Shown: positions 21,915-23,554, numbered from the stretch's first letter. The stretch: 64,000 nt of DNA from a phage (GCA_012411765.1 GCA_012411765.1_3031.1), one strand, 5' to 3'. Notes: a model not told the origin generated them from the letters alone. Made by a program: numbers and translations.

Positions 21915-22694
21915 TTAATTAAAAATATATACTTCATCAGTTCCATTCTTTTCTTTGGAATGATATATGTTAAAGACATATTTTTTATTAAGATGCTTAA
22001 CATTGTATTTTTTAGACCATTCTTTAAGAAGAGTGTTTTCCTTTCCGTGATGCTCTAAAACATTCGACAGTCCAAATTTTATTCCTCTGTCATTTAAAGA
22101 ATCTAAAAGATTTAAAAGGTCTTTTTCTTCTTCTTCTGACCAAAATTTATTATAATCAGCAACTGTTATAAGATATGGAGGGTCCACATATACAAAATCG
22201 CCGTCTAGAATTTTGACATCTTTAAAATGCAATGAACTAAAGATTATTTTATCACAATTTTGTTTAAAGTGATTAAAGCGTTTTTCACTATTTTTGTTTA
22301 TAGTTCTTTTTCCAAACGGAGTAGTAAAATTTCCTTTATCGTTTATACGAATCATATTACTAAACCCGTGAAAATGAAGAACATAAAGTAAAAGAGGATC
22401 TCTAGTTTTATTATAATCTTCACGTAATTTCAAAAACTCTTCTTTTGATGTTTTTGATAGTTTGTATTGCTTTATTACTTTTAATACGTCATCCCATGAT
22501 ATATCAATAAGACATTTATACATTTCAATAATTGGTGTTTGAATATCATTGGCCAATACAGGACCATTGACGTTCAAAGACACTGATAAACCTCCACAAA
22601 ATAAATCCACGAATCTGTCATATTTTGGAAAGTGGGGCTTAAGTTCAGGTAATAATGACTGTTTATTACCTGTATACGCGATAGCTCCTAGCAT
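21915..22694 (-). CDS. dam: Dam DNA adenine methyltransferase
   Basis: 259 aa; DPPY catalytic motif (YVDPPYLIT). Confidence 0.9.
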
Positions 22695-23254
22695 TATATT
22701 CTCTCATTTATTGCAGCAAAAAATGAATTATACAATTCATCATCATATGTATTTGATAGTAATACTAACACGTTTTGCGATTTAGCATATTCATTAAACC
22801 TCGCCTGAATAGTTGGATTATCAGTAAATGATTCTCTTTTTGTCCATTTATTACGCGGATAATATCCGCATGGCAAAAAATCTAATATCATCAATGATAC
22901 AGGGTTTTCAGTTTTTGTGTATTCTTTTAATTTCTCTTTATCTTCTAAATATATTCCAACAGAATCAATAGCTGTACCTCCACCAACTTGGTGTTTAATT
23001 TCAATTATATGCTTTTTACCGTTGCGAGAAATAACAATATCAAATCGTCTAGTACGCTTCTTAGTTATAAAATTCGAGCAAAATAAATTATTTGATTTTT
23101 CAGTATCATCGGTTAAAACCATTTTTTCTTGATAACTAACTGAACAATCAGTGAAATATTCTTTTACTTTATTAAGTATGAAATTTTCAACTACGGCAGA
23201 TATTTTATATGAATCTCCGTTTAAAGCCATTTCATGTACAATTTTATTAATCAT
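22694..23254 (-). CDS. hypothetical protein, putative PD-(D/E)xK-type nuclease (186 aa)
   Basis: Motif [20 protein letters not shown] (D ... E-x-K); stop overlaps dam start (TAATG); own early promoter at 23262..23296. Confidence 0.45.
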
Positions 23255-23353
23255 TATATCATCCTCAGCAATTTATTTTATAATACCATAACAAGCTGAG
23301 AAAGTAAACAAATTTGTGAAATTTGCGATAAATATTAATTTAAAGGAGGACAT

Positions 23354-23554
23354 ATGGTACAAAAATTAATGGCACTTGTTAATGCCATCAAAGGTAATAA
23401 AAAGCGTATAGCTTTTACTATTTCTGCTATGGTAGGAATTTTACTCTGGAACTTTATTTTATCACCTGTTGCAATTGCGCATGGTATTAATATTCCAGTA
23501 GTTACTCTTGATACATTCGTAGATTTAGCATTTGCTTTAGTTGGGTTAATTTAA
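23354..23554 (+). CDS. small membrane protein (66 aa), plus strand
   Basis: Strong RBS AAAGGAGGA upstream of ATG; two hydrophobic segments; stop overlaps gene 61 stop (convergent). Confidence 0.4.
   Translation: MVQKLMALVNAIKGNKKRIAFTISAMVGILLWNFILSPVAIAHGINIPVVTLDTFVDLAFALVGLI

Follow-up and report, generated by a model that had tools for sequence, protein, structure and literature searches.

Analysis of a 64,000-nucleotide (nt) stretch of phage DNA (GCA_012411765.1; the whole stretch is referred to here as the window, and coordinates are counted from its first letter) revealed that the dam gene, encoding a GATC N6-adenine methyltransferase, is preceded by and overlaps a gene for a restriction-endonuclease-like protein of 186 amino acids (aa). 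This protein is very probably an active nuclease, and we favor, at about an even chance, the reading that the two genes constitute a phage-borne DpnII-like restriction-modification cassette, of which the Dam of phage T4 would be the orphaned methylase. The window is Tequatrovirus (T4-like phage) DNA; over 1,051 bases round the locus, it matches Shigella phage ESh17 at 99.2% identity, and many Escherichia, Shigella, and Yersinia T-even isolates at ~97%. The minus-strand genes are, in order, gene 61 (primase), the 186-aa open reading frame (ORF), dam, and gene 56 (dCTPase), with a 66-aa plus-strand ORF, dam.1, situated between the primase gene and the 186-aa ORF (Table 1). An earlier examination of the sequence alone (the sequence-only reading) had defined the 186-aa ORF, and our ORF check returned the same coordinates. 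The 20-residue peptide quoted at that time is present in the ORF, and the described TAATG overlap can be seen in the sequence, as the TAA stop of the nuclease gene (22696..22694) and the ATG of dam (22694..22692) share one base. Both the 186-aa ORF and dam.1 are far beyond what chance would produce, because they are conserved under purifying selection across hundreds of genomes.

No curated family claimed the 186-aa protein above threshold, and the PHROG to which it belongs (8706) is a family of unknown function. Weak Pfam matches were found to DpnII (PF04556; 16.7 bits, E 0.0046) and to BanI. The DpnII profile was also matched, in the same profile region (143–235 of 278), by four relatives of the protein, with the best score among them being that of P0009 (22.5 bits, E 8e-5). 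There was no DpnII match in three of the eight members tested (P0005, P0007, and P0011), nor in P0013. The REase_II model of PADLOC also gave a match (E 9e-5). An AlphaFold model, built with eight homologues in the alignment (predicted local distance difference test, pLDDT, 78; predicted template modeling score, pTM, 0.79), shows the alpha-beta-beta-beta-alpha-beta core that typifies restriction-endonuclease-like nucleases, with D72 located on one predicted strand (67–77) and E85 and K87 on another (80–88). The features of the PD-(D/E)xK superfamily are present, that is, the core fold, an acidic residue on strand 2, (D/E)-x-K on strand 3, and a helix glutamate. The D...(E)xK arrangement proposed in the sequence-only reading is therefore there, although the numbering given for it (D82/E97/K99) was wrong, as the residues are D72, E85, and K87.

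An alignment of homologues, which had been suggested as a check on that proposal, bore it out, as all eight full-length members, even at 32% identity, retain E23, D72, E85, and K87 without exception. Likewise invariant in these eight are H88, Q89, the GTAIDS loop, and D125. The Tequatrovirus nuclease gene is under strong purifying selection, with a ratio of nonsynonymous to synonymous substitution rates (dN/dS) of 0.015–0.04; relative to BYEP01, it has 23 synonymous and three nonsynonymous changes (dN/dS 0.03). The earlier view of the protein as restriction-endonuclease-like is thus supported by the fold model, the invariant active-site residues, and the weak similarity to DpnII, and it is the combination of PD-(D/E)xK fold, invariant residues, and purifying selection that makes it very probable, as judged from sequence comparison and modeling, that the protein is an active nuclease. 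More specifically, there is about a fifty-fifty chance that the protein belongs to the EcoRI/MunI-like (alpha) branch of the type II restriction enzymes, as distant kin of DpnII and MboI, whose site is GATC. MboI (GATC) shares the framework of NgoMIV, Cfr10I, PspGI, and EcoRII (PMC4081073), a remark that fits both lines of evidence, the DpnII similarity and the fold. In comparison with the minimal type IIP enzymes that resemble MunI and EcoRI, the phage protein has only 14% identity, no sequence-level match to any solved structure, and a GGGTAIDS loop with no recognized counterpart in those enzymes.

The nuclease family is uncharacterized, and among the data searched it is found in T4-like phage contexts only. 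An exhaustive hidden Markov model (HMM) search of 1.84 billion representative proteins returned 12 sequences, all of which were family members, fragments, or spurious repeats, and no bridging sequence toward DpnII. The same family set was given by word-indexed searches of 5.8 billion proteins (profile search at E up to 10). No relative emerged from a pattern scan of 185,579 bacterial and archaeal genomes, and the only additions from viral and metagenome scans were contigs of T4-like phages. The PDB yielded no sequence match to the single protein or to the family profile (E up to 10), and NCBIfam gave only noise for the nuclease. The database names of the family are all “hypothetical protein”, apart from a single GenBank record (phage Shinka) that has “putative restriction endonuclease”. 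Searches of the literature on the T2 dam region or a T-even restriction enzyme found nothing relevant.

Linkage to dam, cassette boundaries, and losses

Each relative of the nuclease gene with a readable context was followed directly by a D12-class Dam gene, in most cases with an overlap (of 4 to 35 nt in the distant relatives). The location of the pair varies. Relatives at ~55–56% and 63% identity have the same 61–56 locus (L004–L008), and those at 43%, of the Klebsiella phage KPV15 type (L020 and L023), lie between rIIB and gene 52. Of the two relatives at 32–33%, one is beside rIIA (L010) and the other is on a short contig with only the nuclease-dam pair. The 49% relative (L011) abuts a downstream ORF whose type could not be determined. 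That the same pair is found at differing genome sites indicates that it moves as a unit. The two proteins also diverge together, as identities to the window of 63, 56, 43, 33, and 32% for the nuclease are accompanied by identities of 71, 73, 62, 55, and 53% for Dam, which is nearly the same order.

In a neighbor-joining tree, the nuclease-linked Dams form one clade. The Dams of Slopekvirus, Pseudotevenvirus, and Krischvirus fall outside it and have unrelated upstream genes; these upstream genes, and that of the Dam of an Aeromonas phage, were tested as diverged members of the nuclease family and are not members. Nested in the linked clade is the Dam of Aeromonas phage GomatiRiver_11, the one Dam there without the nuclease. 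In that phage, the nuclease slot, again between primase and dam, is taken by the gene for a different, DNA-repair nuclease, a denV-like (endonuclease V) gene (L029 1037..1507) that overlaps the dam start; the Dam itself has 58% identity to that of the window. We also noted that in Cronobacter phage leB (Pseudotevenvirus; L027 656..1495) the Dam homologue is immediately preceded by the gene for a second, unrelated DNA methyltransferase. Phages of the KPV15 type have a 223-aa ORF containing ...VRVEVKTH... (L020 2931..3602 and L023 2916..3587) two ORFs upstream of the pair; it may be PD-(D/E)xK-like, and it gave no match to the nuclease family profile.

Comparison with phages that have an empty site defined the cassette. 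The flanks of AR1 and T6 align with the window up to 21915 and resume at 23343. Gene 56, the plus-strand micro-ORF, and gene 61 follow in a row in AR1, a Mosigvirus, and T6, and neither cassette gene is present; most Tequatrovirus and Mosigvirus genomes resemble T6 in this respect. In the phage collection, dam was present in 182–184 records and the nuclease gene in ~150. Both genes were found in 147 of 182 dam records, and all 147 full nuclease genes were contiguous with dam. No record among the ~150 nuclease carriers had the nuclease without dam. The sequence-only reading had supposed that such a module would be unusual in a T-even phage, whereas these counts show it to be common. It had also called for comparison of the dam–61 interval among the classical phages, which showed both genes in T2 (with a frameshifted nuclease C-terminus), dam only in T4, and neither gene in T6.

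The absence of the nuclease from T4 is due to a deletion. The window has two direct copies of the 8-bp sequence TTTGCGAT, and T4 has a single copy that joins both flanks, with 548 bp absent relative to the window. The deletion takes the promoter and the first 157 nuclease codons, leaving a C-terminal scar upstream of T4 dam (L002 2627..2712) that is unannotated in the T4 RefSeq record. The same breakpoint is shared by ~34 dam records, among them every T4 strain and several isolates from nature. In KarlGJung, an independent deletion of ~356 bp in the nuclease gene leaves a 61-codon remnant without the catalytic residues. These two independent deletions, few as they are, both keep dam. Toward its 3' end, the nuclease gene has a homopolymer that also varies, with a length of six in the window and most isolates, five in T2 and T4, and eight in KarlGJung. 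The T5 run of the T2 and T4 allele frameshifts the last eight residues (...NSFLLQ*), giving a protein of 181 aa with a stop 13 nt before dam. This length variation alters the C-terminus and the coupling to dam, and the run may be a site of recurrent inactivation or slippage.

The pair appears to have its own early-type promoter, as had been proposed in the sequence-only reading, although the element was placed ~15 nt away from its actual position (at about 23262..23296 rather than 23309..23280). It was matched in our scan as TTTACT-17-TATTAT with a TG extended -10, and is followed on its 3' side by a ribosome-binding site (RBS) for the nuclease gene, GAGGA, at 23268..23264. A generic sigma-70 scan is weak evidence alone, with 17 sites against 17.9 in shuffled sequence, that is, no enrichment. 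As the scan does no better than shuffles, the promoter call rests on the T4-early-like features and on the promoters annotated at the same place in related records. Downstream of gene 61 there is a terminator-like hairpin and U-run, a sign that the nuclease-dam pair may be transcribed separately, as an early unit of its own.

Table 1. Features of the nuclease-dam locus in the window. Strand is given as + or -, or as a dot (none stated).
Feature	Coordinates	Strand	Details
dam, D12-class GATC N6-adenine methyltransferase, 259 aa	21915..22694	-	Pfam PF02086, E 1e-50; TIGR00571 dam, 231 bits
Accessory cassette (dam, nuclease gene, and promoter), 1,427 bp	21916..23342	.	Defined against the empty AR1/T6 site
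PD-(D/E)xK restriction-endonuclease-like gene, 186 aa	22694..23254	-	PHROG 8706; no Pfam family above threshold
A6 run (T6 in coding strand) near nuclease 3' end	22718..22723	.	Length varies between phages
Left copy of 8-bp direct repeat	22774..22781	.	TTTGCGAT; T4-type deletion end-point
Predicted catalytic core codons	22994..23041	-	D72 23041..23039, E85 23002..23000, K87 22996..22994
Invariant E23 codon	23188..23186	-	Family alignment
Early-type promoter of nuclease-dam operon	23280..23309	-	GTTTAC 23309..23304, 17-18 nt spacer, TG-n-TATTAT (TATTAT 23285..23280)
Right copy of 8-bp direct repeat	23322..23329	.	TTTGCGAT; T4-type deletion end-point
Late-promoter-like element	23327..23334	+	GATAAATA; 19 nt upstream of dam.1 ATG
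dam.1, conserved small membrane protein gene, 66 aa	23354..23554	+	PHROG 2024, E 1.4e-31, profile positions 1-65 of 65
Terminator-like hairpin and U-run, downstream of gene 61	23366..23391	-	11-bp stem then TTTTT; -12.4 kcal/mol, z -3.98 vs shuffles
Gene 61 primase, flanking core gene	23551..24579	-	ORF; PHROG 47, E 7e-107

Readings of the nuclease-dam pair

The endonuclease and methyltransferase genes are adjacent, co-oriented, and co-inherited, as is expected of a type II restriction-modification system. A nuclease with its catalytic residues intact, an obligatory Dam partner to which it is translationally coupled, their co-mobility, their co-divergence, and the one-sided loss match the signature of a type II pair, and it is for this reason that we favor the reading of the locus as a restriction-modification cassette. 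The sequence-only reading had likewise seen a restriction-modification-like module, and linkage, co-divergence, fold, and the conserved active site speak for it. The weak similarity to DpnII points to GATC as the site, and that cleavage there would be blocked by N6-methyladenine we infer from the Dam partner. We hypothesize that one early promoter reads both genes, that the nuclease would cut at or near GATC sites lacking N6-adenine methylation, and that Dam would keep the phage's own hydroxymethylcytosine (hmC) DNA methylated and hence safe. The T4 “orphan” Dam would then be a remnant, left after deletion of the nuclease and promoter between the two 8-bp repeats. The window dam is 95.5% identical at the DNA level to T4 dam, yet here and in most dam-carrying records it has its partner.

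Several observations weigh against the restriction-modification reading, the first of which concern the enzyme. In the DpnII/MboI-type systems (R.DpnII with the Dam-family DpnM; PF04556), the nuclease is ~280 aa, in contrast to 186 aa here, and the phage protein corresponds to the C-terminal half of the profile only, the N-terminal half being absent. Its score and that of the best-scoring relative are below the Pfam gathering threshold for PF04556 (23 bits), and the highly conserved GGGTAIDS loop (residues 91–101) was modeled with low confidence. As no bacterial or archaeal relative was found, there is no characterized restriction-modification system by which to anchor the specificity, which here would follow from the similarity and the partner; DpnII and MboI differ in this from the phage family, which was seen in T4-like phages and in none of the bacteria searched. 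Other points concern the genetics. The one-sided loss comes down to two or three independent losses of the nuclease; the nuclease gene precedes that of the methylase, and no mechanism for a delay is evident; and the Dam homologues without a nuclease in Slopekvirus, Pseudotevenvirus, and Krischvirus indicate that Dam is useful by itself in T4-like phages.

The remaining difficulty is the natural substrate. The hosts are Dam-positive enterobacteria, whose DNA a DpnII-type enzyme would therefore leave uncut, and the gene, unlike those of DpnII and MboI, resides in a lytic phage with glucosyl-hmC DNA. Such DNA resists most restriction enzymes, which makes a natural substrate hard to name. With host DNA methylated and glucosyl-hmC DNA resistant, the nuclease would probably, and speculatively, be directed at incoming or competing DNA without Dam methylation, for example that of superinfecting or co-infecting relatives without dam, or other replicons that outrun the host Dam. 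A more specific form of the restriction-modification reading is that the pair acts on hmC DNA, the nuclease destroying unmethylated superinfecting or co-infecting relatives with Dam as the antidote, and that T4-type phages have kept Dam as a “vaccine”. The T6-like and AR1-like phages, which would be possible targets, have no dam; still, we regard this form as rather unlikely. A lytic virus carrying a site-specific nuclease together with the matching adenine methylase, and having its DNA modified, is known from chlorovirus PBCV-1 (R.CviAI/M.CviAI, GATC); here, in contrast, the host already Dam-methylates its DNA.

A different explanation, to which we assign a distinctly low probability, is that the protein is a nuclease for degrading host DNA that is indifferent to methylation or requires it (the logic of DpnI). 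It would cut C-containing, Dam-methylated GATC or other host sites and spare hmC DNA, while the phage Dam would complete the methylation of the host or be merely co-inherited. Its early promoter is like those of other T-even nucleases that act on host DNA, methylated GATC is abundant in Dam-positive hosts, and the fold is silent on methylation sensitivity. However, since the host Dam would supply the mark and the phage Dam would be dispensable, nuclease-only genomes should occur, which is not what the ~150 nuclease-carrying records show. In addition, the weak similarity is to DpnII rather than DpnI, and the 186 aa contain no winged-helix domain for reading methyl groups.

Two further explanations are each very unlikely. 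In one, the protein is a nicking enzyme of methyl-directed repair or recombination, like MutH or Vsr, that reads Dam marks for strand discrimination and is a partner of Dam in DNA maintenance. A test for the MutH/Sau3AI family gave neither a sequence match nor a closest-fold match to MutH. In the other, of equally slight probability, it is a free-standing homing-type endonuclease, comparable to the seg and mob products of T4, that cuts dam-less relatives near 56/61 and spreads itself and dam by recombinational repair. T-even genomes are rich in homing-endonuclease genes, the cassette is a clean presence/absence insertion, and the region has homing-endonuclease traffic, with T4 segF adjoining gene 56. 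Against this, it is the partner (Dam) that is constant and the site that varies (61–56, beside rIIA, and rIIB–52), the reverse of the pattern that a site-specific homing gene should show; moreover, nuclease and Dam co-diverge, and Pfam found no GIY-YIG or HNH domain. Finally, we consider it most improbable that the protein is catalytically inactive and binds DNA or Dam in order to regulate methylation or give it specificity. Loss of activity is frequent among PD-(D/E)xK folds, the protein is small, and in T2 the last 8 residues are missing; against this, the family-wide invariance of the four canonical metal-binding/catalytic residues is unexpected for a scaffold, and T4 Dam is established, also by a note in the T4 record, to work alone.

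In the whole window, GATC is the most under-represented of the 256 tetranucleotides, with 64 observed against 203 expected from trinucleotides (observed/expected, O/E, 0.32; z -11.9). We considered this depletion as a signal specific to the cassette and rejected it. AR1 (L024, 1–50000), which has neither dam nor the nuclease, has an O/E of 0.31, and more distant relatives have values of 0.08–0.36; the equal depletion in cassette-less AR1 makes GATC counts unusable as evidence for cassette specificity.

The neighboring gene dam.1

The sequence-only reading had grouped the plus-strand micro-ORF with the nuclease-dam finding. Its existence was confirmed at the position given, as a gene of 66 aa with an RBS (AAAGGAGGA) at 23342..23350 and a stop that overlaps that of the primase gene (TTAA at 23551..23554), and it is indeed the only convincing plus-strand gene, being the sole ORF of at least 55 aa outside the long minus-strand ORFs with a strong Shine-Dalgarno sequence. 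The grouping did not hold, as dam.1 is an unrelated core gene that lies outside the cassette. By tblastn, dam.1 was found in 693 phage records at 44–100% identity, always convergent with the primase 3' end and also in cassette-less phages. It has the same position in T4, T6, AR1, a Mosigvirus, and metagenomic relatives. It is called Dam.1 in the T6 record; T4 reference NC_000866.4 has it unannotated at 17738..17938 (L002 2739..2939), and newer T4 records list a hypothetical protein. The window ORF is a full-length member of the Tevenvirinae dam.1 family in its conserved position, and nothing sets it apart. Its dN/dS is 0.09–0.2.

Two transmembrane helices had been claimed for the product. An AF2 model (pLDDT 75) has helices at 2–12, 16–42, and 52–63, of which hydropathy marks one, at ~16–42, as a clear membrane helix; the second is only a shorter hydrophobic C-terminal helix, at 52–63. 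One UniRef entry names a dam.1 homologue “holin”. We saw no supporting evidence for this name. The membrane prediction is of one clear and one shorter hydrophobic helix, and there is no lysis gene near dam.1. The T4 holin is gene t, located elsewhere. Upstream of dam.1, the window, T2, AR1, and a Mosigvirus have an nATAAATA element 19–22 nt before the start, and in a relative at 63% identity (L008) there is a perfect match to the T4 late-promoter consensus, TATAAATA, at the same place. This late-promoter-like element suggests that dam.1 is probably a late gene. The literature search turned up no relevant ribosome-profiling work on small ORFs of T4.

The terminator-like hairpin of gene 61 falls within the 5' coding part of dam.1, on the opposite strand, and dam.1 codons 5–13 are therefore under double constraint. 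On the other side of the cassette, the interval between soc and gene 56 (20927..21339) contains two small ORFs, of 69 and 68 aa, as in T6 and ESh17; T4 has the GIY-YIG homing endonuclease gene segF there.

Significance for T-even Dam

The Dam enzymes of T2 and T4 have been under study since the 1970s. A 2025 review still says of what T4 Dam does in vivo that it “remains unclear” (PMC12707154). The distribution reported here shows that, in nature, the T-even Dam is normally encoded by the second gene of a pair, and that laboratory T4 is a deletion derivative. Loss of the nuclease partner may explain why the Dam of T4 has long seemed to be an enzyme with nothing to do. The long-standing question of the purpose of T-even Dam becomes directly testable with existing phages, namely T2, T4, T6, and isolates with the intact pair.

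If the superinfection form of the restriction-modification reading were true, it would supply the long-missing function for Dam, and could help to explain the depletion of GATC, including that in phages without the cassette. If the nuclease is active, it would represent a new and very compact family of type II-like enzymes, of possible practical use. It would also mean that a restriction-modification-like system serves a virulent phage with hypermodified DNA, for which phage-phage competition or superinfection exclusion would be plausible roles.
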